This document shows, piece by piece, positions 2,004 through 60,350 of a stretch of 64,000 nucleotides of DNA. The first letter of the stretch is position 1, and every line of letters starts with the position of its first letter. The position numbers were made by a program, and so were the translations under genes. The stretch comes from Candidatus Goldiibacteriota bacterium (GTDB taxonomy: Bacteria; Oederibacteriota; PGYV01; DSYL01), in NCBI GenBank assembly GCA_018000835.1, contig JAGNJD010000002.1, forward strand, positions 1,732-65,731, written 5' to 3'. Under the pieces are notes generated by a model that was not told the DNA's origin, searched no databases, and saw only the letters and a list, made by a program, of their open reading frames with translations.

Positions 2004-3703
2004 TGGTGAGCATGGTGAAAAAATTATTTTTGATACTTACATTGACGTTTTCAATGGTTGCATTAAACGCAAGCAACCTGCCTTATTCACAGGATTTAAG
2101 CGTAAAAAATTCCGGAGCCGCCGGTGCTCTGTCCGTATTCATAACAGATTCCTTTGCCTCCTTTATAAATCCGTCCCTGCTTGGCTGGACTCCGAGACAG
2201 AACGTCGGATTTATATATTACAATCTTTACGAAGATGGCATTTTAAGCTGCCTATCTTATGCCCTGCCCATGATTGAAAAAGGCACAATGGGTTTATCCG
2301 TCCTTTATCTGTCGTCCGGAGACGTAACTGAAAGAGACGTAAACAATCAGGAAACCGGGAAAATTTTTTCTGATACAACAACACACGTTAACTTATCCTA
2401 TGGAATAAATCTATTTTCGTTTTTTAACGTTGGATTAAATCTAAAATACATAAACAGAAATTTTTATGAAAAACAATTCTACGGCATCGGCTGCGACGTT
2501 GGAACTTCTTTTGACCTGCCTTATAACTCCAGAGTATCCATAAATCTTGAAAATGTCATAAAACCCCGGTTTAAATATTCAGATACGTCCTATGATACGC
2601 TTCCCCTGCGTTTTGACATGTCAGCAGGTTTTTCTTCAGAATTAATTAACGCAATAAACGGCATCCTCAAAGCAGGTGCGGGTATAACAAAAGAAGAAAA
2701 AAACGATACCATTGGATGGCAGGCCGGAATTGAATATGAAATCTTTAAGATCCTGACAGTGCGTGGTGGTTTAAATGAATCCGGTTTTGCGATAGGTTCT
2801 TCTGTTACTTATCTTGATTTCGTTTTTGATTATGCATTCATAAACAAGCCGCTTGACATCATCCACAGATTTTCGTTGTCCTACATGTTTGGTGATAACG
2901 TAAGGGAAATAGAAAACAAAATTAAAACGAAAGAAGAAAAAGTAAAATACGAACTGGTTCAGAAAATCAGGCAGGATGCGTTAAATGAATTTAAAACGAC
3001 TATAAACGATGCGCTTGCAAAAAACGACCTTGACCTTGCAAAGGAAACCGTCATAAAAGCTCTTGTCTGGGCTCCTTATGATAACTGGTTCAGGGAAAAA
3101 GAAAAAGAAATAAACGGTCTGATAAACAGGGATAAAAAACAAAAACTATTAAAGGAATCGGATACTGCAATGAAAGAAGGTTCCTACATAGATGCGCTTG
3201 TTTCCCTGAAAGCACTCCAGGAGATTGAGCCGGAAGACAAAGAGATACAGAAAAAAATAAATGAGGTTACGGGATACGTTAAAACTCTTGGAGAAAAAAA
3301 CATAGCAATAGAATCCGCAAACAGGGAGAAAATAAAAACTTATTTTGAAAAAGGTCTGGATAATTATGCTTCCGGTAAATATGAAAAAGCAATTGAAGAA
3401 TGGAATAAGGTAATTCAATCGTCTCCGCTGCAAAACCAGGTTTATACATACATTAAAAAAGCAGAAGAAAAAATAAGGAAAAAAGAAGATCAGGAAAAAA
3501 CAATGAAAATTCTCGAAAAACAAAAAATCCTGGAATTATATAACGAAGCAGTAATAGCGCATACAAAAGGGAAATTTGAAGAATCAATAAAATTGTGGAA
3601 AGAAATATTAAAACTGGATCCGGGTAACAAAGAAGCACAGGAATACCTGAACAAGGTAACGGAAGAATACAAAAAAATGCAGTTACAGCAGTTGCAATGG
3701 TAA
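2003..3703 (+). CDS. Outer-membrane beta-barrel-like protein (possible PorP/SprF-like cognate partner) fused to C-terminal TPR repeats
   Basis: N-terminal signal peptide. The N-terminal half is rich in alternating beta-strand-like segments. The C-terminal ~250 aa is TPR-like and Lys/Glu-rich. The start overlaps the stop of the upstream CTD cargo gene (TAATG). Family assignment is tentative. Confidence 0.4.
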   Translation: MVSMVKKLFLILTLTFSMVALNASNLPYSQDLSVKNSGAAGALSVFITDSFASFINPSLLGWTPRQNVGFIYYNLYEDGILSCLSYALPMIEKGTMGLSVLYLSSGDVTERDVNNQETGKIFSDTTTHVNLSYGINLFSFFNVGLNLKYINRNFYEKQFYGIGCDVGTSFDLPYNSRVSINLENVIKPRFKYSDTSYDTLPLRFDMSAGFSSELINAINGILKAGAGITKEEKNDTIGWQAGIEYEIFKILTVRGGLNESGFAIGSSVTYLDFVFDYAFINKPLDIIHRFSLSYMFGDNVREIENKIKTKEEKVKYELVQKIRQDALNEFKTTINDALAKNDLDLAKETVIKALVWAPYDNWFREKEKEINGLINRDKKQKLLKESDTAMKEGSYIDALVSLKALQEIEPEDKEIQKKINEVTGYVKTLGEKNIAIESANREKIKTYFEKGLDNYASGKYEKAIEEWNKVIQSSPLQNQVYTYIKKAEEKIRKKEDQEKTMKILEKQKILELYNEAVIAHTKGKFEESIKLWKEILKLDPGNKEAQEYLNKVTEEYKKMQLQQLQW

Positions 3704-4111: not shown

Positions 4112-4200
4112 ATAATTTCCCTTCTTTGGAAAAGAGGGGCCAGGGGAGATTTTATTTTATCAAATCCCCCTTTCTACCCCTTTTTCAAAGGGGGATAAAT
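4112..4200. repeat. Repeat family A unit (twin GC-hairpin element), located directly downstream of the sigma-54 activator stop
   Basis: Sequence ttcccttctttggaaaagaggggccaggggagatttta...atccccctttctacccctttttcaaagggggat. It contains two perfect palindromes (cccctcttt/aaagagggg and ccccctttt/aaaggggg) with T-runs. It may act as a terminator. Confidence 0.6.
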
Positions 4201-4203
4201 AAA

Positions 4204-6120
4204 TTATTTCTTTTTTTGCATCCTTTTCCATAACGCCATGCGTGAAATGCCAAGCACCTTTGCCGCTTTTGTCGTTGAATTATTTACCCTTGCTAATATC
4301 TCATTTAGGTCAATTTCATTAACTTTTTGTTTAAGGTATTCCTTTTTCATTTTTAATTTTTTTGCTGCCTTGTCATAATCATAATTTACGCTTTTTAACA
4401 TTTCTATCAGGTCTATGGTTTTCTGATTCTTGACGTTTTTAACCGTCGCCTTTGCCGATAATAATTCATCCGGCAGGTAAATTTTTTTTACTTCAACATC
4501 GTCATACAAAGTCACTATACGCTCAATTACGTTTTCCAGTTGTCTTACGTTACCCGGCCATGGATATTTTAAAATCACTTTTAACGCATCAGGAGAAAAA
4601 TCTTTAAATTTTTTATTATATTTTTCGTTAAATTTTTTTAAAAAATAATGGGCAAGCAAAACGGCATCTTCGCCACGTTCTCTCAAAGGCGGTAATGAAA
4701 CGGGTAAAACGTAAAGCCGGTAAAAAAGGTCCTCCCTGAAACTGCCGTCTTTTAACATTCGTTTTATGTCCTTGTTCGTTGCAGTTATAAGCCGCACATC
4801 AACCTTTATTGTTTCGTTTCCGCCGACTCTTTCAAATTCCCTGTATTGTATAAAACGCAGTAACTTAACCTGCATCGCAGCGGTTATGTCGCCTATCTCG
4901 TCAAGAAAAATCGTTCCTCCGTCTGCTATTTCAAATCTTCCCTGCTTTGTCTTCACTGCGCCGGTAAAAGCACCTTTTTCATATCCGAACAATTCTGATT
5001 CAAGCAGGTTTTCCGGCAGCGCACCGCAGTTTACAACAATAAAAGGTTTGTCAGAACGCCTGCTTAACCTGTGGATGGCACGAGCTACAAGTTCTTTTCC
5101 CGTCCCATTTTCACCATCAATAAATACCGTTGAATCCGTTTCAGACGCTTTTATTATCAGGTCCTTGACTTTTTTTACCGGCTCACTTTCACCTATAAAA
5201 TCCGCGAAAGACAAAGTATCACTTTGCTGTTTTGCTATGTCCATTATTGATTTTGAAATGTTGAATAAAATTTCAATACCGTCGTTTTGTTTTATGAATT
5301 CCCTGTAATCGTCTTTTATTTCGTCTTTCATTCCACTTTTAACGTAAATAAGGCCAAGGTTATAAAGAGCATTTTTATTTTCCGGATTTAAAATAACAGA
5401 ATTTTTAAAACATTCCATGGCTTCATTTGTAAGTCCCTTCCTGAAATAAGACAAACCAAGGTCATTGTATAAATTTGATTTTCTTCTGCTGTCCGACGAT
5501 ACATTTATTGCATAATTATAATTTTCGATTGCAACGTCATAATTGCCGTCCTTGAAATAAATGTCGCCAAGATTTGCATAAGAAAGTTCGTTTTTGGAAT
5601 CGTATTTTAATACGTTTTTAAACGCATCAATTGAATTTTTATTTTCTCCTGCATTTTTATAAAGAACCCCGAGAAATAAATTTACGTCCATAGCCAAACT
5701 TTTTATGTCGGAATATTTATCGGAATATATCAAACTTCCGGTCGGGTCTATTTCGTCTAAATTTATTGACCTCAGACTGTCTATTGCTTCTTTTATTTTG
5801 TTTTCATTTATGAATATAAGTGCAAGGTTGTAGGAAACGTCCCATTTTCTTTTATTTCCAGGTATTTTTAAATAATTCTCCTTTGCTTCCAGAAAATTAC
5901 CATGGATAAAAGCAATATCCCCTTTTAAACTTAAAATAAATTCTTCCGGTAAATCGGTTTCTATCGTTTTTATTTTGGCCTGTATGCCTGAATAATTTTT
6001 TTGCCTGAAATCCCCCTCAATCTCCAGCATAACCGCATCAGGCGGTTTTGTCCTGCTACCACAGTTTTTACAGAACATGCTGTTTTTTTTTATTTCTGCC
6101 CCGCAATTTTCACAATACAT
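4204..6120 (-). CDS. Sigma-54-dependent transcriptional activator (bEBP) with N-terminal zinc-ribbon and TPR sensor region, AAA+ sigma-54 interaction domain and C-terminal Fis-type HTH
   Basis: N-terminal CENCG...CKNCG zinc ribbon, then TPR-like repeats. Walker A GENGTGKE, the GAFTGA signature, ESELFGY and a C-terminal HTH (AKVLGISRMALWKRMQK). Confidence 0.85.
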   Translation of the reverse strand: MYCENCGAEIKKNSMFCKNCGSRTKPPDAVMLEIEGDFRQKNYSGIQAKIKTIETDLPEEFILSLKGDIAFIHGNFLEAKENYLKIPGNKRKWDVSYNLALIFINENKIKEAIDSLRSINLDEIDPTGSLIYSDKYSDIKSLAMDVNLFLGVLYKNAGENKNSIDAFKNVLKYDSKNELSYANLGDIYFKDGNYDVAIENYNYAINVSSDSRRKSNLYNDLGLSYFRKGLTNEAMECFKNSVILNPENKNALYNLGLIYVKSGMKDEIKDDYREFIKQNDGIEILFNISKSIMDIAKQQSDTLSFADFIGESEPVKKVKDLIIKASETDSTVFIDGENGTGKELVARAIHRLSRRSDKPFIVVNCGALPENLLESELFGYEKGAFTGAVKTKQGRFEIADGGTIFLDEIGDITAAMQVKLLRFIQYREFERVGGNETIKVDVRLITATNKDIKRMLKDGSFREDLFYRLYVLPVSLPPLRERGEDAVLLAHYFLKKFNEKYNKKFKDFSPDALKVILKYPWPGNVRQLENVIERIVTLYDDVEVKKIYLPDELLSAKATVKNVKNQKTIDLIEMLKSVNYDYDKAAKKLKMKKEYLKQKVNEIDLNEILARVNNSTTKAAKVLGISRMALWKRMQKKK

Positions 6121-10379: not shown

Positions 10380-10450
10380 TTTACCAACCCCCCCTTTGTC
10401 CTCCTTTTTAAAGTGGAAAAAGAAACAAAGTAATTTCCCCTATTTAAAAA
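10380..10450. repeat. Degenerate repeat family A unit
   Basis: ccccccctttgtcctcctttttaaagtgg...taatttcccctatttaaaaaagatgggtca is a diverged copy of the twin-hairpin unit. Confidence 0.4.
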
Positions 10451-10472
10451 AGATGGGTCAAAAAGAATATTT

Positions 10473-10690
10473 TTATTGAATCATATCGTTCCCACCCATC
10501 GTTTTAAAAATGTAGAGACTTAAGCTTGCTCTGTCTCTGAAAACAAATTAAATGGTGGAAATTTTTACAAATGGTTATGAAAACAAAACAGCGGTTTATC
10601 CTGTGCTGGTCGCGTGGCACACCGTTTGAATATCCGCCTTGCTTATCTTTGAGACACAGCAATCTTAAGTCTCTACGAATCTTGTTATCT
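10473..10690 (+). repeat. Repeat family B copy 1 (~220 bp element with ~26-bp terminal inverted repeats)
   Basis: ~90% identical to 54158..54378. Contains gtagagacttaagcttgctctgtctc ... gagacacagcaatcttaagtctctac inverted repeats enclosing ~115 nt. The internal ORF 10571..10810 is probably spurious. Confidence 0.7.
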
Positions 10691-10711: not shown

Positions 10712-10765
10712 AAAGGGGGAAAAAATATTTCCCCTCTTTGGAAAAAGAGGGGTCACCTGTTTTTT
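10712..10765. repeat. Repeat family A partial unit
   Basis: aaagggggaaaaaatatttcccctctttggaaaaagaggggtcacc. Confidence 0.5.
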
Positions 10766-20546: not shown

Positions 20547-20605
20547 GGGAATAAGGAAAGACATGGAGGACATTTAAAAAGGTTGAAAATAATGAAAAAA
20601 GAGGG
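20547..20605. repeat. Repeat module C (55-bp conserved block preceding family A arrays)
   Basis: gggaataaggaaagacatggaggacatttaaaaaggttgaaaataatgaaaaaagagggg is near-identical to 53949..54008. Confidence 0.6.
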
Positions 20606-20835
20606 GAATTAACTTTTCTTTTTTTCTCCCCCCTTAGAAAATGGGGACAAAAGAGGATTTGATTGAAATAAAATCTCCCCTGACCCCTCTTTTCCAAAGA
20701 GGGGAATTTATTTTTATCCCCCTTTGAAAAAGGGGGAAAGAGGGGGATTTGTCTTCTTATTCTTTTCCCCCTTTAGAAAATGGGGACAAAGGAGGATTTG
20801 ATTGAAATAAAATCTCCCCTATCCCCTCAATCGCA
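20590..20835. repeat. Repeat family A array (about 3 units, opposite orientation to the other loci)
   Basis: aaaatctcccctgacccctcttttccaaagaggggaa and atccccctttgaaaaagggggaaagagggggattt are reverse complements of the family A hairpins. Units are tandem and lack unique spacers. Confidence 0.7.
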
Positions 20836-34985: not shown

Positions 34986-37900
34986 TTATTTCAATATTAC
35001 CAGATATTCCGGTCTGGATCTAATCTTACCATCTTTCCCTTTTGCTTCTATTACAAAATAATAAATTCCATTGGCAAGTCTGGATAATGTTTCTCTACCG
35101 AGCGTTGAAATCTTCAGTCCTGCATCTATATTTTGTTCTATTGTTTCATTTAATATCAACCTGAAAGATGCAGAATAAATTTTTATTCTAACTTCACTGC
35201 AATGCTGTGTAACATAATATCTAATTCTCAAGTCGTTTATGGATTTTGGATTATATGGATGTGGATATATTCTTATATTTTTAATTACCAATTCCGGTTC
35301 TTCCGGTGCAGGCGTATTTGTCGGTGTATTTGTAGGGGTTGGAATCGTCTGCGTGACCGTCCATGTCGGTGTTGATGTGAAAGACGATGTATATGTCGGT
35401 GTATTTGTAGATGTTGGCGGTGTTCCTGTAATTGTAGGTGTTATTGTAAAAGTCCTTGTTACTGAATACGTAGGCGAAATTGTCGATGTATATAATGGTC
35501 CGGGGGGAGAATACCATACGTCATTTGTCGTTGACCCCATTGAATCAAAACCAGCTATTACCCATAATCTACCGGAATAAAAAAGTAACTCAAATGCAAC
35601 ACGTGGAGTAAAATTAGTCGAACTGCTTAACTGTGTCCAGTTTATACCGTCAGGTGACACCCATACATCATTTAAAAAAACAGAACCATTATATCCGCCT
35701 ATCATCCATAACAAACCATTATAATATATTAATCCATTTAACATTCTTTTCGTATATGCAGTTGATGCTGTTTCCTGAGTCCAATTTATTCCATTGTTTG
35801 AAGACCAAACATCATTTAAATAATTGTCGTTAATATCATATCCATTAAATATAAATAGTTTTCCATTTAAAACGGCGGACGAAAAACCATATCTTGCGTT
35901 GAAACCGGCGAATGGTGTTTCCTGCGTCCAGTTAATACCATCAGCAGATGACCAAACGTCATTAAAATATTCACCCGCTATATTAGTGCCGCCAATAACC
36001 CAAATTTTGTTATTAAAAACAATGCTTGTATGCCAATAGCGCGGAGAAAAAGTCGCCGCTGCAGTTTCCTGCACCCAGTTAATTCCATCGGAAGACGACC
36101 ACACGTCATTATAGACCGGCATTGGAAAAATATCAGTTCCTCCAATAACCCATAACTTACCATTAAAGGTCACCGTTGAATGAAATGCTCTCGGAGAAAA
36201 ACCAGCGGCTACTGTTTCCTGAATCCAATTTATGCCATCGTTTGAACTCCAGATATCATTATGTGTAATAAATGAATCATCAAGTCCACCAATTACCCAC
36301 ATTTTTCCATTAAATACTGCACCTGTATGTCCATATCTTGGTGTGAAATTTGCATTTCCAGTTGCAAGCACCCAATCTATTCCCATTGTTGGCAGAGTCA
36401 ATGGCGTGCATGTTGCTGAAACAGTTGGAGAGATTGTAAAAGTAGCTGAAATGGAATGCGTGGGCGATATCGTTGATGTTGGAGTTATTGTCCCACTATT
36501 TGTGAATGTAGGTGAAATTGAGTGCGTTGGTGATATTGTCGGAGTATTTGTATAAATTACTGTTAAATTTAAATAATATGAATGTATAATATTGTCGTTT
36601 CCATATTCTATTACCCTCGCATAATACGTTCCTGGTCCTAATGTCATTGAAATTCGTGAATATAAATTAGAACCGCCATCATCATCATAACCAATCTGAT
36701 TTGTCCCTGTTGAATCATAAAAATAAAGAACCGTATCATCTCCACCAGACCCACTTGTTTCAAGTATTATATTAGCATAATCAGTTAATGTAAAAGTCAC
36801 CCAGTCATTATCTCCCGCTGGATTTATACTGTGCGTCTGTTGAACACCGCTTATTATTGTCTTTGCTTCCGGATAAGAATTATCCGGCTCATATATATCT
36901 AATACCGGTGTTGTATAAGTTACTGTTAAATTCAAATAATAAGTATTTATAATATCATTATTTCCAAATTCTTCAACCCTCGCATAATACGTTCCTGGTC
37001 CTAATGTCATTGAAATTCGTGAATATAAATTAAAAGCGCCATCATCATTATAACCAATCTGATTTGTCCCTGTTGAATCATAAAGATAAAGAACCGTATC
37101 ATCTCCACCAGACCCACTTGTTTCAAGTATTATATTAGCATAATCAGTTAATGTAAAAGTCACCCAGTCATTATCTCCCGCTGGATTTATACTGTGCGTC
37201 TGTTGCACTCCACTTATTATTGTCTTTGCTTCCGGATAAGAATTATCCGGCTCATAAGCATCCAGCACCATTGTTGGTGTCCGGGTTGATGTCGATAGCG
37301 GAGTAAATGTTGTGGTCGGAGTCCTTGTCGATGTCCATGTCGGCGTCGCTGAATATGTTGGCGAAATTGTTCTGGTTGGGGATATAGTATATGTATTTGT
37401 TGCTGAAACATACGGAGTATTGGTTTCTGTCATAAAAATTGTTATAGTGTGTGTCGGAGTTATTGTTTGTGTAATGCTCTGCATAGGAGTTATTGTAGCA
37501 GAACCTGCCTGCACATAATCAATTACAAGATAAGGAGTATAACCAGCGCCGCTTTCCCTTGAATATAAAACCGCCTGATAATTTGTTGTCAGGCTGATTC
37601 TCAAACCATAATTAGGCCCTGCTTTCCAGTTGTTTACTATATCCGTGATATCAACTGAATAATAACCTGTTGTTGAATCTAAAATATTGGCCGCCGCCGT
37701 TGTTCCAATGACTCCAGGCATATTTTCATAAGTAAGCCCTGTCTCCGTCCAATCAGAAGCACATTGCATAAATCCCAGCGCAGGGTTGCCCATACTATAC
37801 CCTGAATTAAAATACAAAATTGCATTATTTATTGTTCCGGCAGGTAAATCACTGGATGAAAATTTTATAAAAGAATAATTATAAATTGGCGGCCAGTTTA

Positions 37901-38096
37901 CAACCGACATTACAGGCAATGTCCCGCTATTTAGTGTAGGCGAAGAAGAATCTGCAAAAGTATCTTCAACAGGATAAATCGTTATTATATCTGCATGGGT
38001 AGTAAAAAAAATAAAAAATAAAAAATAAAATAAAAAATTTTTTTTTACTGCAGAGATTCCCAATTTTGATTTATAATTCACCGCCATTTTTCTCAC
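34986..38096 (-). CDS. Large secreted protein: N-terminal beta-sandwich domain, two tandem pre-peptidase C-terminal (PPC) domains, Kelch-type beta-propeller, Thr/Pro/Ser linkers and T9SS-type C-terminal sorting domain
   Basis: Two nearly identical PPC domains (YEPDNSYPEAKTI...DNDWVTFTL...GTYYARV). Six Kelch-like blades (PRYGHTGAVFNGKMWVIGG, PRAFHSTVTFNGKLWVIGG, ...). C-terminal IRIYPHPYNP...VRIKIYSASFRLI...GIYYFVIEAKG CTD. Confidence 0.65.
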   Translation of the reverse strand: MRKMAVNYKSKLGISAVKKNFLFYFLFFIFFTTHADIITIYPVEDTFADSSSPTLNSGTLPVMSVVNWPPIYNYSFIKFSSSDLPAGTINNAILYFNSGYSMGNPALGFMQCASDWTETGLTYENMPGVIGTTAAANILDSTTGYYSVDITDIVNNWKAGPNYGLRISLTTNYQAVLYSRESGAGYTPYLVIDYVQAGSATITPMQSITQTITPTHTITIFMTETNTPYVSATNTYTISPTRTISPTYSATPTWTSTRTPTTTFTPLSTSTRTPTMVLDAYEPDNSYPEAKTIISGVQQTHSINPAGDNDWVTFTLTDYANIILETSGSGGDDTVLYLYDSTGTNQIGYNDDGAFNLYSRISMTLGPGTYYARVEEFGNNDIINTYYLNLTVTYTTPVLDIYEPDNSYPEAKTIISGVQQTHSINPAGDNDWVTFTLTDYANIILETSGSGGDDTVLYFYDSTGTNQIGYDDDGGSNLYSRISMTLGPGTYYARVIEYGNDNIIHSYYLNLTVIYTNTPTISPTHSISPTFTNSGTITPTSTISPTHSISATFTISPTVSATCTPLTLPTMGIDWVLATGNANFTPRYGHTGAVFNGKMWVIGGLDDSFITHNDIWSSNDGINWIQETVAAGFSPRAFHSTVTFNGKLWVIGGTDIFPMPVYNDVWSSSDGINWVQETAAATFSPRYWHTSIVFNNKIWVIGGTNIAGEYFNDVWSSADGINWTQETPFAGFNARYGFSSAVLNGKLFIFNGYDINDNYLNDVWSSNNGINWTQETASTAYTKRMLNGLIYYNGLLWMIGGYNGSVFLNDVWVSPDGINWTQLSSSTNFTPRVAFELLFYSGRLWVIAGFDSMGSTTNDVWYSPPGPLYTSTISPTYSVTRTFTITPTITGTPPTSTNTPTYTSSFTSTPTWTVTQTIPTPTNTPTNTPAPEEPELVIKNIRIYPHPYNPKSINDLRIRYYVTQHCSEVRIKIYSASFRLILNETIEQNIDAGLKISTLGRETLSRLANGIYYFVIEAKGKDGKIRSRPEYLVILK
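36540..37268. repeat. Intragenic tandem duplication (~363 bp x 2) encoding the two PPC domains
   Basis: Near-identical DNA blocks (for example gtcacccagtcattatctcccgctggatttatactgtgcgtctgttg...ggataagaattatccggctcata at about 36810-36900 and again at about 37160-37250). The encoded 121-aa units are >90% identical. Confidence 0.8.
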
Positions 38097-53948: not shown

Positions 53949-54008
53949 GGGAATGAGGAAAGACATGGCGGACACTTAAAAAGGCTGAAAATAATGAATA
54001 AAGAGGGC
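53949..54008. repeat. Repeat module C copy 2
   Basis: gggaatgaggaaagacatggcggacacttaaaaaggctgaaaataatgaataaagaggg is near-identical to 20547..20605. Confidence 0.6.
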
Positions 54009-54150
54009 TACGGGAGATTTTATTTTTTCAAATCCCCCTTTTACAAAGGGAAAAAAAGAAAAAAACAAATCCCCCTCTTTCCCCCTTTTTCAAAGGGGGA
54101 TAATAAGATGAAGTAATTTCCCCTCTTTAAAAAAGAGGGGTCAGGGGAGA
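54008..54150. repeat. Repeat family A array (about 2 units)
   Basis: ...gggagattttattttttcaaatcccccttttacaaaggg... and ...atccccctctttcccccttttttcaaagggggataa...aatttcccctctttaaaaaagaggggtcaggggagattt. Confidence 0.7.
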
Positions 54151-54157
54151 TTTATTC

Positions 54158-54378
54158 TTATTGAATCATATCGTTCCCACCCATCGTTTTAAACATGTAG
54201 AGACTTAAGCTTGCTCTGTCTCTTAAAACGAATTAAATGGTGGAATTTTTTATAAATGGTTATGAAAACAAAACAGCGATTTATCCTGTGCTGGTCGCGT
54301 GGCACATAGTTTGAATATCCGCCTTGCTTATCTTTGAGACACAGCAAGCTGTGTCTCTACGATTCGTTATTGTGCATT
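54158..54378 (+). repeat. Repeat family B copy 2
   Basis: ~90% identical to 10473..10690 and in the same orientation. It includes the same terminal inverted repeats and an internal TGGCAC-N5-TTGAA motif. A 38-bp fragment of the element's 5' end recurs at 54478..54515. Confidence 0.7.
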
Positions 54379-54529
54379 CATGTTGGTAAATACGAATTAA
54401 TAATGACAACGGATGATTATATTCAATTAAAAACAAAAAAATGGAAATATGGATGGAATTGTATTTTAACGGCGGCATTATACCACCCATCGTTTTAAAC
54501 ATGTAGAGATAGTTTTTATACTCTTCATT

Positions 54530-54730
54530 CCCTTTAAAAAAACAAATCCCCCTCTTTCCCCCTTTTTCAAAGGGGGATAATAAGATGAAGTAATTTCCCC
54601 TCTTTAAAAAAGAGGGGTCAGGGGAGATTTATTCCATTAATTTCCCCTCTTTGAAAAAGAGGGGCCAGGGGAGATTTTATTTCTATCAAATCCCCCTTTC
54701 TCCCCCTTTTCTAAAAGGGAAAAAAGAAAA
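54530..54730. repeat. Repeat family A array (about 2.5 units)
   Basis: Tandem twin-hairpin units (aatttcccctctttaaaaaagaggggtcaggggagattt..., aatttcccctctttgaaaaagaggggccaggggagatttt...atccccctttctcccccttttctaaaaggg). ORFs 54281..54502 and 54651..54947 lie in the repeats and are probably spurious. Confidence 0.7.
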
Positions 54731-54949
54731 AAATCCTGATTTACATAGAGAAATTCGTATGTTGCCTCCGACTATTCCTGACAATATGATTCACAGAGAG
54801 TATATAAATAGTGTTTACCATCTATGTCCTGCTCCCTTTTCTACTTTCAAGGTCTTACCCCAATTTCATTTAGAAGACAACAATAGGTTAAAATATAATA
54901 TTTTTATTATAAATCGTATGGATTTGCGATTTTATATGTGGCACTAAAA

Positions 54950-59626: not shown

Positions 59627-59869
59627 TTTAACCTCCGGTAAAAATTTAAAATTTTCTGTAGTAAAATTTTTAATCTGCCCTTTATTATATATTATTTTAT
59701 TTATTTTTCAATCATATCTGAAATTTAGACGTAATTCAACGGAATTAGGATGACAATCTTTTATAGTTTTGCAGGTATATAACCGCGTGTCAACCAGGAA
59801 TTTAAAACAATGACGTTTTAAGGCGTATGTGGTGCTGAGTTTCTATTGTCACATCTTTTTTTCATCCTT

Positions 59870-60350
59870 TTTAAAAGGGAGAAAAGAAAACAAGTAATTT
59901 CCCCTCTTTGGAAAAGGGGTCAGGGGAGATTTTTATTCTTTCAAATCCCCCTCTTTCCCCCTTTTTCTACGGGGGAGAAAAAATAATTTCCCCTCTTTGG
60001 AAAAGAGGGGCCAGGGGAGATTTTATTCTTTCAAATCCCCCTTTTTCCCCCTTTTTCTACGGGGGATAAAGAAAAAAACAAATCCCCCTCTTTCCCCCTT
60101 TTTCTACGGGGGAAAAAAATAATTTCCCCTCTTTGAAAAAGAGGGGTCAGGGGAGATTTTTATTTTTTCAAATCCCCCTCTTTCCCCCTTTTTCTACGGG
60201 GGGAGAAAAAATAATTTCCCCTCTTTGGAAAAGAGGGGTTAGGGGAGATTTTATCCTTTCAAATCCCCCTTTGTCCCCCTTTTCTAAAGGGGGAAAAGAA
60301 TAAAAAGAAAACAAATCCCCCTTAATCCTTCTTTCCAAAGGGGGATAAAA
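59870..60350. repeat. Repeat family A array (largest: about 5-6 tandem twin-hairpin units)
   Basis: Reiterated taatttcccctctttggaaaagaggggtcaggggagatttttattctttcaaatccccctctttccccctttttctacgggggagaaaaaa units. Second-hairpin-only copies occur at 60040-60120. There are no unique spacers. Confidence 0.75.

Follow-up and report, generated by a model that had tools for sequence, protein, structure and literature searches.

Triplex-motif repeats in a Candidatus Goldiibacteriota genome and their association with DUF559 endonuclease genes

What are the short hairpin units that stand in tandem between the genes of a Candidatus Goldiibacteriota bacterium, and by what means do they spread? We studied them in a 64-kb stretch of DNA (contig JAGNJD010000002.1, positions 1,732 to 65,731 of the forward strand), called the window here, in which they form a main array at 59860-60345. 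An earlier note, made from the letters of the window, had described twin-hairpin units of ~85 nucleotides (nt) and likened them to repetitive extragenic palindromic (REP) sequences, bacterial interspersed mosaic elements (BIMEs) and miniature inverted-repeat transposable elements (MITEs). We found that the units consist of two modules, A and B, which belong to the intrastrand DNA triplex motifs known as BoxC, PIT or TM_ECO. Catalogues of that class go back to the 1990s and counts cover thousands of genomes, yet its function and route of spread are unexplained. In other bacteria, modules of the same two sequences bracket a small gene of the DUF559 endonuclease family, with their tails towards the gene. 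We think it probable that the window units are gene-less derivatives of a selfish DUF559 element, amplifying in tandem and driven by its nuclease.

Module architecture and the triad rule

Read 5′ to 3′, a module runs from a 9-nt pyrimidine arm through a 3-nt loop to a complementary 9-nt purine arm, followed by a 3-nt linker and a 9-nt tail of G, A and T. The tail mirrors the purine arm, and T is permitted opposite an A of the arm. Module A reads CCCCTCTTT-GGA-AAAGAGGGG-TCA-GGGGAGATT, and the reverse complement of module B reads TCCCCCTTT-GAA-AAAGGGGGA-AAG-AGGGGGATT. The earlier note had seen two different hairpins, but A and B are the same design turned in opposite directions, with their tails towards each other. 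The T-run that it had placed after the first hairpin is part of the conserved 9-nt third-strand segment GGGGAGATT and not a terminator tail. Both pairs of arms (CCCCTCTTT/AAAGAGGGG and TCCCCCTTT/AAAGGGGGA) form nine Watson-Crick base pairs closed by a 3-nt loop.

The base triads of a purine-motif triple helix are G·GC, A·AT and T·AT. When the tail was laid antiparallel to the purine arm across the 3-nt linker, 9 of 9 positions gave one of these triads in 11 window modules. Since all nine tail positions fit the triad rules, each module is a class II intrastrand triplex motif. Arms and tail were strongly conserved, while loops and linkers were free to vary. Triplex folding of these A and B sequences is a prediction from the pattern of bases. 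The folding tool used covers Watson-Crick pairs only; for one unit it returned an A stem, a B stem and a middle hairpin formed by the two facing tails, at about -24 kcal/mol (z about -3.2).

The relation between arm and tail was followed outside the window in two sets of loci. One came from a scan for module A (one genome per species, 32 fixed bases, at least 120 stretches), and the other comprised 80 metagenome loci selected by protein similarity, described below. Among the module-A stretches listed, the segment after an asymmetric purine arm was a mirror copy in 450 cases, a direct copy in 120 and a complement in 0, and all 120 direct-copy cases were ambiguous poly-G. More than 20 arm sequences were present in these stretches, each with its own matching tail, including the class with T opposite A (for example GGGAGAGGG with GGGTGAGGG). 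In the 80 protein-selected loci a run of at least 7 triads was found in 142 of 424 hairpin-strand instances, compared with 8 in the shuffled control, and 42 distinct asymmetric purine arms each carried a matching tail. When the G positions were fixed, an A of the arm was faced in the tail by T in 56 cases, A in 55, G in 7 and C in 1 (A or T in 111 of 119). The tail-arm relation is a three-way co-variation that obeys the triad rule. Two other readings of the tail were rejected. It is not a direct repeat of the arm, as asymmetric arms carry mirror tails. Nor is it an alternative Watson-Crick partner of the pyrimidine arm, because T swaps freely for A in the tail and would be a mismatch in such a pairing.

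E. coli has a class II intrastrand triplex motif that was reported as BoxC (Bergler 1992), found again as the PIT elements (Hoyne, Maher et al. 2000, 2002) and surveyed in 5246 genomes as TM_ECO (Holder et al. 2015, PMC4666352). According to the last study, the TM_ECO single strand forms a stable triplex in vitro, and TM_ECO motifs mark variable loci and are tied to local genomic instability. The G-rich stretch after each window hairpin mirrors the purine arm, and the family therefore belongs with these motifs; the window repeats are members of the BoxC/PIT/TM class with a new, A/T-richer sequence. They share with the known members the order of pyrimidine arm, short loop, purine arm, 3-nt linker and reverse-Hoogsteen-compatible tail, as well as the intergenic position, the frequent inverted (‘palindromic’) pairs and the local genome variability. 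Unlike TM_ECO, with its pattern CCCTCNCCC N3-6 GGGNGAGGG N3 GGGNGAGGG, the window modules have different arms (CCCCTCTTT/AAAGAGGGG/GGGGAGATT and TCCCCCTTT/AAAGGGGGA/AGGGGGATT), close on two T·AT triads and stand in long alternating arrays. Modules of TM_ECO type were present in related loci (L007, L021, L028, L169 and L193-L195), and in the 80 protein-selected loci they likewise flank DUF559 genes.

Window copies were counted in three ways, which are kept apart here. A local-alignment census found 30 copies, 13 of A type and 17 of B type with degenerate and truncated ones included, in seven intergenic loci. These are exactly the loci at which the earlier note had placed an intergenic repeat family, and shuffled sequence gave 0 copies. 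Module A (AATTTCCCCTCTTTGGAAAAGAGGGGTCAGGGGAGATTTT) has 8 window copies at up to 3 mismatches and module B (CAAATCCCCCTCTTTCCCCCTTTTTC(TAC/AAA)GGGGG) has 7, where 100 dinucleotide shuffles led us to expect 0 of either. The strict structural definition recovered 11 window modules and 0 in every one of 30 dinucleotide shuffles. The repeat family is real and statistically unambiguous.

The main array holds four A and seven B modules, alternating A(+) and B(-), and Tandem Repeats Finder reported periods of 90 and 137 nt with matches of 89-95%. Its members are as follows.

59860-59882, minus strand: remnant of module B
59901-59932, plus strand: module A, purine arm with a 2-nt deletion
59943-59976, minus strand: module B, ‘GTA’ variant, TCCCCCGTA-GAA-AAAGGGGGA-AAG-AGGGGGATT, three loop-proximal pairs broken
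59990-60023, plus strand: module A, CCCCTCTTT-GGA-AAAGAGGGG-CCA-GGGGAGATT, 9 base pairs and 9 triads
60033-60066, minus strand: module B, ‘GTA’ variant
60080-60113, minus strand: module B, ‘GTA’ variant, partner A lacking
60126-60159, plus strand: module A, perfect
60170-60202, minus strand: module B, ‘GTA’ variant
60218-60251, plus strand: module A, perfect; hairpin -8.8 kcal/mol (as DNA)
60261-60294, minus strand: module B, perfect, TCCCCCTTT-AGA-AAAGGGGGA-CAA-AGGGGGATT; hairpin -10.6 kcal/mol
60313-60345, minus strand: module B, degenerate, at the high-coordinate end of the array

Paired A/B units of ~90 nt do recur, and to this extent the two-part unit of ~85 nt stands. B without A at 60080 and the A-A neighbours at 54597 and 54644 mean that it is not a fixed 85-nt pair. 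The linkers are 9-14 nt long and are themselves repeated, so that the absence of unique spacers was rightly observed. A CRISPR array was rejected on the same features, together with the alternating orientation of the modules.

DUF559 genes between inward-facing modules

Exact copies of the 36-nt module A were present in at least 120 genome stretches, drawn from many phyla. Hosts among the matches listed were Nitrospirota, Thermodesulfobacteriota, Methylococcaceae, Crenothrix, Kapaibacterium, Binatia, Planctomycetota, Omnitrophota, Nitrospinota, Acinetobacter, Pasteurellaceae, Mannheimia, Ursidibacter and Lysobacter koreensis, and the local G+C of the stretches listed ranged from 26% to 71%. 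Flanks were unrelated between loci and the 5′ flanks varied. Many of the listed loci had B-type or other-type modules beside A, and neighbouring modules were in opposite orientation in 129 pairs vs 45 in the same orientation. This alternating mosaic is the part of the REP/BIME comparison that held; the GTAG signature was lacking and the recurring neighbour was DUF559. Module A was present in 6 of 2.9 million viral contigs, and a plasmid search gave no match, with a low-complexity filter that may hide matches. The A sequence has been recorded at the capsule-locus borders of Actinobacillus pleuropneumoniae, where it was read as an inverted repeat or terminator (Bosse et al. 2018).

Two further arrangements of module A were seen. 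In Lysobacter koreensis (L020, locus 71% G+C) module A and an inverted copy lie 57 nt apart as a REPIN-like pair, which clearly looks like foreign DNA. At five loci from delta-proteobacterial metagenome-assembled genomes (MAGs; L003, L025, L040, L078 and L094) a C-type module (CCTCCCTTT..) and an A module lie 5 nt apart. This pair is part of a larger repeated element, which is bounded by terminal inverted repeats of its own (AGTCCATAATTATATAGAC.. / ..GTCTGGTCAATTATGGACT) and has several copies per genome.

When the open reading frames (ORFs) of the 120 module-A stretches listed were clustered, the only small family recurring beside the module was a protein of ~115 amino acids, in 10 of the 120 loci. 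It belongs to Pfam DUF559 (E = 1e-34 to 1e-49) and is homologous to E. coli YcjD. The DUF559 profile matched PDB 3HRL (E = 5e-33) and, more distantly, the catalytic domain of the homing endonuclease I-Bth0305I (PDB 3R3P, E = 0.002). VSR, DUF559 and 3r3p have been placed in one clade (Steczkiewicz 2012). The geometry was constant, with a G-tail-oriented module a few bases before the start codon and a reverse-oriented module ~10 nt after the stop, so that both tails point at the gene.

In the reverse test, 80 metagenome loci were fetched with a DUF559 alignment, on protein similarity alone, and strict modules were sought within 120 nt of gene ends. A strict module was present at a DUF559 gene end in 54 of the 80 loci, and at both ends in 31. 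Upstream, 43 of 78 DUF559 ends had one, compared with 6 of 75 for other ORFs in the same loci (Fisher 1e-10). Downstream the counts were 42 of 74 and 5 of 94 (Fisher 4e-14), which gives 11 of 169 for the other ORF ends together. Tails pointed inward to the DUF559 gene in 81 of 85 cases (p = 1e-19). The sequence type of the module followed the DUF559 lineage. The closest relatives had a B-type module (CCCCCCTTT or TCCCCCTTT) upstream and an A-type module (CCCCTCTTT) downstream, which are the two modules of the window, and more distant relatives had TM_ECO-type or other types at both sides. The association between DUF559 and triplex repeats is strong, oriented and cross-phylum. It is new relative to the open-access literature found, in which no paper tied DUF559 or ycjD to BoxC/PIT/TM repeats. 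An independent published screen reported DUF559 genes to be 14-fold enriched among predicted inversion targets, that is, genes flanked by long inverted repeats.

Some further loci bear on the bracket. The few modules beside non-DUF559 gene ends (L122-L201) also pointed their tails at the gene in 12 of 14 cases, and other small cargo genes may use the same module bracket. In L069, L073 and L090 (Nitrospinota and other MAGs) the bracketed gene, with B upstream and A reversed downstream, is nested in an outer inverted repeat (..GGTTCTTTCTCATTTCAAGTGGGTAA / TTACCCACTTGAAATGAGAAAGAACC..). The densest cluster seen was L193 (contig ERZ795062.1744), with nine modules of TM_ECO or related type in 6.3 kb around one DUF559 gene.

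In E. coli, the DUF559 gene ycjD lies between sapF and fabI, and its stop codon overlaps a degenerate module. In the ycjD-fabI spacer of MG1655 (L121, ~2837-2980) the final ~24 nt of coding sequence of ycjD (GAGACGGTGCTGGAGAATATTC..) occur again ~115 nt downstream, past a degenerate module, and a module remnant and BoxC lie beyond this duplicated 3′ end. The duplication resembles what a second, partial element of the ycjD type or a gene-conversion tract would leave behind. The gene was found in 3378 of 5426 complete genomes, and 2038 of the remainder have the eef efflux operon at the same site. Sampled genomes compared as follows.

Genomes with ycjD (36 sampled): 11-24 BoxC-like sites per chromosome, median 17.5
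Genomes without ycjD (23 sampled): 1-16 BoxC-like sites per chromosome, median 3

The difference was significant (Mann-Whitney p = 9e-10), though confounded by phylogeny. The genomes without ycjD included one group with 1-3 BoxC-like sites and O157-type genomes with ~12. These counts are supportive, in that they agree with a link between DUF559 and the repeats, but they are not clean.

Gene-less units and differences between strains

How do the window units relate to the bracketed genes? On the minus strand a unit of ~90 nt consists of a forward B, ~10 nt and a reversed A. A full element of ~0.45 kb consists of a forward B, a 5′ untranslated region (UTR), DUF559, a 3′ UTR and a reversed A, and its B and A sequences are the same as those of the window unit. 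As the two modules are the same, and arranged in the same way as the ends of the DUF559 element, we read the window units as gene-less copies of those ends. They would be either empty sites or internal-deletion derivatives of the element, much as REPINs stand to RAYTs, or MITEs to the insertion sequences from which they come. The window spacer, for example GATTTGAAAGGATAAAATCTCCCC, aligns with a join of the 5′ UTR start (GATTTGAAAGAT directly before ATG, in L124 and L110) and the 3′ UTR end (..TTTATAAAATCTCCCC). This match is short and A/T-rich and is therefore suggestive only. Outside the main array, the window holds the following copies and one insert between copies.

4119-4195: single tail-to-tail doublet, A(+) 4119-4152 and B(-) 4162-4195, the B ending 8 nt from the stop codon of the sigma-54 activator at 4204
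10390-10460: degenerate B(-) 10390-10416; degenerate A(+) 10437-10460, tail gone
10731-10755, plus strand: module A hairpin alone, tail gone
20583-20828: array beside tRNA-Leu, orientation opposite to the other loci, with degenerate B(+) 20627-20660, perfect A(-) 20671-20704, perfect B(+) 20717-20750, degenerate B(+) 20766-20799 and truncated A(-) 20810-20828
54000-54153: truncated A(+) 54000-54020, short B-like piece 54033-54058, perfect B(-) 54067-54100 and A(+) 54120-54153
54154-54543: ~390-nt non-coding insert flanked by A(+) 54120-54153 and B(-) 54544-54577, whose tails point inward
54544-54719: perfect B(-) 54544-54577, A(+) 54597-54630, A(+) 54644-54677 and degenerate B(-) 54688-54719

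All window copies are intergenic and several loci lie directly beyond gene 3′ ends, as the earlier note had remarked for the sigma-54 activator. Its statement that the array at ~20590-20835 is in the opposite orientation was likewise correct.

Tail-to-tail pairs that lie 320-367 nt apart in other genomes hold DUF559. The comparable pair in the window (54120-54577, gap 392 nt, vs 362-367 nt in DUF559 elements) holds the non-coding insert. A decayed DUF559 gene was considered for 54154-54543 and rejected, as there was no similarity and only short ORFs were present. Identical 88-nt blocks at 54066-54153 and 54543-54630, each a reversed B followed by a forward A, suggest a ~477-nt duplication that took in the insert. 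Near each end of the insert, at 54177-54203 and 54483-54509, is a copy of a 27-nt direct repeat (CCACCCATCGTTTTAAACATGTAGAGA).

The insert also contains one copy of a second repeat of ~215 nt, found at 10473-10688 and 54158-54370 with 93% identity between the window copies. It has a 26-bp inverted repeat (GTAGAGACTTAAGCTTGCTCTGTCTC / GAGACACAGCAA..GTCTCTAC) closing a ~150-nt core (RNA fold z -3.9 to -4.3), and at both window loci it begins directly after the tail of an A module. In the contig L208, at ~3285-3490, a repeat of this type lies in the loop of a B module with the junction CCCCCTTTAG/TAATACACGTCGCAAGG, and the identical junction is found at window 10712. The ~215-nt repeat had no Rfam match, no convincing ORF and no copy among the other fetched loci.

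Comparison with close strains relied on short contigs recovered through proteins other than trigger factor. The site downstream of the sigma-54 activator has one unit in the window and three in contig L216, which is 99.7% identical over 6.1 kb; the two extra units are identical to each other. At the site of the main array, L208 (flanks 94-96% identical) keeps the first unit and has a ~260-nt inverted-repeat element in place of three ‘GTA-variant’ units. In a relative with an 81%-identical flanking gene, the units are reversed at this site, and three further close-strain contigs end inside the first unit of the array. The ‘GTA’ variant of B is confined to the main array, which indicates growth there by local tandem duplication. 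Strains with flanks 99-99.7% identical differ in the number and content of their units, which makes the units a substrate of recombination or instability, as the earlier note had thought possible. Near another repeat locus, window ~10233 and L216 1-100 are 99.7% identical to ~185 nt upstream of the S15 gene and then diverge totally. The divergence begins ~150 nt before the degenerate modules at 10390 and is another rearrangement breakpoint beside a repeat locus.

The chromosomal setting of the window is ordinary, with genes for S15, PNPase, trigger factor, ClpP/ClpX, Lon, UvrB, NrdD and PFK. Over the entire window Rfam at the gathering threshold detected 3 tRNAs and nothing else, and at E <= 1 over 53950-54800 only chance hairpin matches below threshold. 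The ORFs that overlap the repeats at 54281-54502 and 54651-54947 were without any protein-family match, in agreement with their description as artefacts. A 363-nt tandem repeat (36548-37256, 2.0 copies, 94% match) within the 1036-amino-acid Kelch/CBM96 ORF 34986-38096(-) is presumably an internal domain duplication.

Maintenance and spread of the repeats

A selfish element driven by its nuclease would work in the following way. The modules would fold when DNA is single-stranded or under repair, and folded modules would stall or misalign replication, so that entire units would be gained or lost in tandem. The folded or paired ends would be nicked or cut by a DUF559 nuclease with its gene at another place in the genome. 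Repair after nicking could then copy units, or the gene, between sites, and such a nuclease-repair cycle would keep the module ends near-identical. Both the action of the nuclease on the modules and a DUF559 gene elsewhere in this genome are putative. A more general proposal goes beyond the window, and we make it tentatively, as a possibility that falls somewhat short of being probable. DUF559/YcjD Vsr-fold genes between inward-facing triplex motifs may constitute an unrecognised class of selfish element, widespread across bacterial phyla, and BoxC/PIT/TM repeats and A/B doublets may be its non-autonomous ends, maintained and spread by action of the nuclease on folded DNA.

Several observations weigh against a DUF559 element as the source of the units. 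The 64-kb window itself has no DUF559 gene by tblastn (E <= 10) or Pfam scans; the tblastn matches that did occur were rejected, being only low-complexity, module-encoded N-terminal extensions of the queries. No strict module was found at 26 of the 80 DUF559 loci, some of which are on short contigs or may have degenerate modules. The likeness between window spacer and UTRs covers only ~6-10 AT-rich bases and could be due to chance, and no target-site duplication was seen. We know of no case in which a PD-(D/E)XK nuclease transposes by itself. In E. coli the correlation of BoxC with ycjD is confounded by phylogeny, and the O157-type genomes that lack ycjD and retain ~12 BoxC imply that ycjD is not needed to maintain the repeats. 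Finally, triplex was detected neither in duplex DNA nor by in vivo dimethyl sulphate (DMS) footprinting, and no mobility genes were found near TM_ECO sites (Holder et al., PMC4666352).

In the main alternative, the modules are structure-driven instability repeats independent of any enzyme, which spread and vary in number by slippage, recombination and horizontal transfer alone. DUF559 would merely lodge there, where doublets favour its landing or retention, or would use expression signals of the modules. The tie of TM_ECO to local instability without mobility genes nearby (Holder et al., PMC4666352) speaks for it, as do the persistence of BoxC in E. coli without ycjD and the non-coding ~390-nt insert that fills the DUF559 slot in the window. 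Slippage would also be expected to give identical tandem copies, which is what the extra units of the window and of L216 are, and the upstream tail AAGGGGGA, 8-20 nt before the DUF559 start codon, looks to us like a ribosome-binding site. Slippage alone, however, leaves unexplained the 36-nt identity across phyla and across 26-71% G+C. Nor does it account for the bracketing of a single small protein family, in 68% of loci and with fixed inward orientation, or for the way in which module type tracks the DUF559 lineage. We therefore regard this alternative as unlikely, although it deserves more weight than those that follow. That the units act in transcripts, as bidirectional intrinsic terminators, stabilisers of mRNA 3′ ends or small RNAs, is quite improbable. 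Several loci do lie just beyond gene 3′ ends, one unit folds into three stable hairpins, and AAATTATTTT, which comes after the A hairpin when the minus strand is read, gives 3 weak terminator-like matches. Yet these 3 compare with 1.8 expected in shuffles, and the plus-strand hairpin is followed by a linker and G-rich tail, not by a T-run. No Rfam family exceeded threshold, and orientation relative to the flanking genes is not fixed, being inverted at the orthologous site of a relative. An RNA hairpin would have no use for a mirror tail with A/T interchange; triplexes of the purine motif reportedly do not form in RNA, and earlier work on E. coli PIT elements found neither promoter nor terminator activity (both in Holder et al., PMC4666352). 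The idea of bidirectional terminators in the earlier note thus finds no support.

Arrays of sites that bind some host protein (a nucleoid or topology factor comparable to the BIME binders, for example) and that lack mobility of their own would be consistent with conserved arms and tail, free loops and linkers, and a position that is always intergenic. Mirror symmetry with A/T equivalence suits base triads better than a protein half-site, identity across phyla is not expected of a host-specific site, and rapid copy-number change between strains speaks against a fixed architectural role, which makes this explanation very improbable. REP families are restricted to one lineage, whereas module A is identical across phyla, and a classical REP/BIME family moved by a REP-associated tyrosine transposase (RAYT, a Y1 HUH enzyme) seems to us the least probable of all. 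The alternating mosaic in intergenic arrays is BIME-like. The cognate RAYT that the earlier note had suggested looking for was not there, since Pfam scans of the window ORFs gave no Y1 or other transposase; nor did a Y1 transposase family recur in the 120 module-A stretches listed, where the partner is a PD-(D/E)XK nuclease.

The DUF559 element that we prefer resembles known systems in part. It shares with REP, BIME and REPIN sequences short intergenic hairpin repeats of alternating orientation in mosaic arrays, and with the REPIN/RAYT system a dispersed gene-less inverted doublet and a partner gene that stands between two inverted copies. These features of REP sequences are reportedly described in work by Nunvar from 2010 and by Bertels and Rainey from 2011. 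Unlike REP/RAYT, the window family lacks a GTAG-type guide tetranucleotide and has an additional third-strand segment, and the partner is a Vsr-fold PD-(D/E)XK nuclease and not a Y1 HUH transposase. The homing endonuclease I-Bth0305I (PDB 3R3P) has a related Vsr-like fold, and the doublets occur both occupied and empty; in contrast to homing genes of that type there is no intron or intein, and the putative target is a structured repeat in many copies and not a unique conserved gene. The window units resemble MITEs such as Correia and ERIC in being small, non-coding, intergenic and bounded by inverted repeats, with a gene-bearing relative from which they plausibly derive. They differ from MITEs in that the parent gene encodes a nuclease and not a DDE transposase, that target-site duplication was not seen, and that growth is largely by tandem duplication.

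In practice the units break metagenome assemblies, as with four contigs that stop within the first unit, and the modules create spurious ORFs and N-terminal extensions, for example ‘PLFSKEG..PPLKKGERGGF’. For the BoxC/PIT/TM class, for which no report of a partner gene existed, the association provides a candidate partner in DUF559/YcjD, itself a protein of E. coli K-12 without assigned function. If the proposal is true, it would be a second partnership of enzyme and repeat beside RAYT/REP, built on a different enzyme and on triple-helical DNA. It would also give the intramolecular DNA triplex a biological role, and would account for the identity of a 36-nt sequence from Pasteurellaceae to Nitrospirota.

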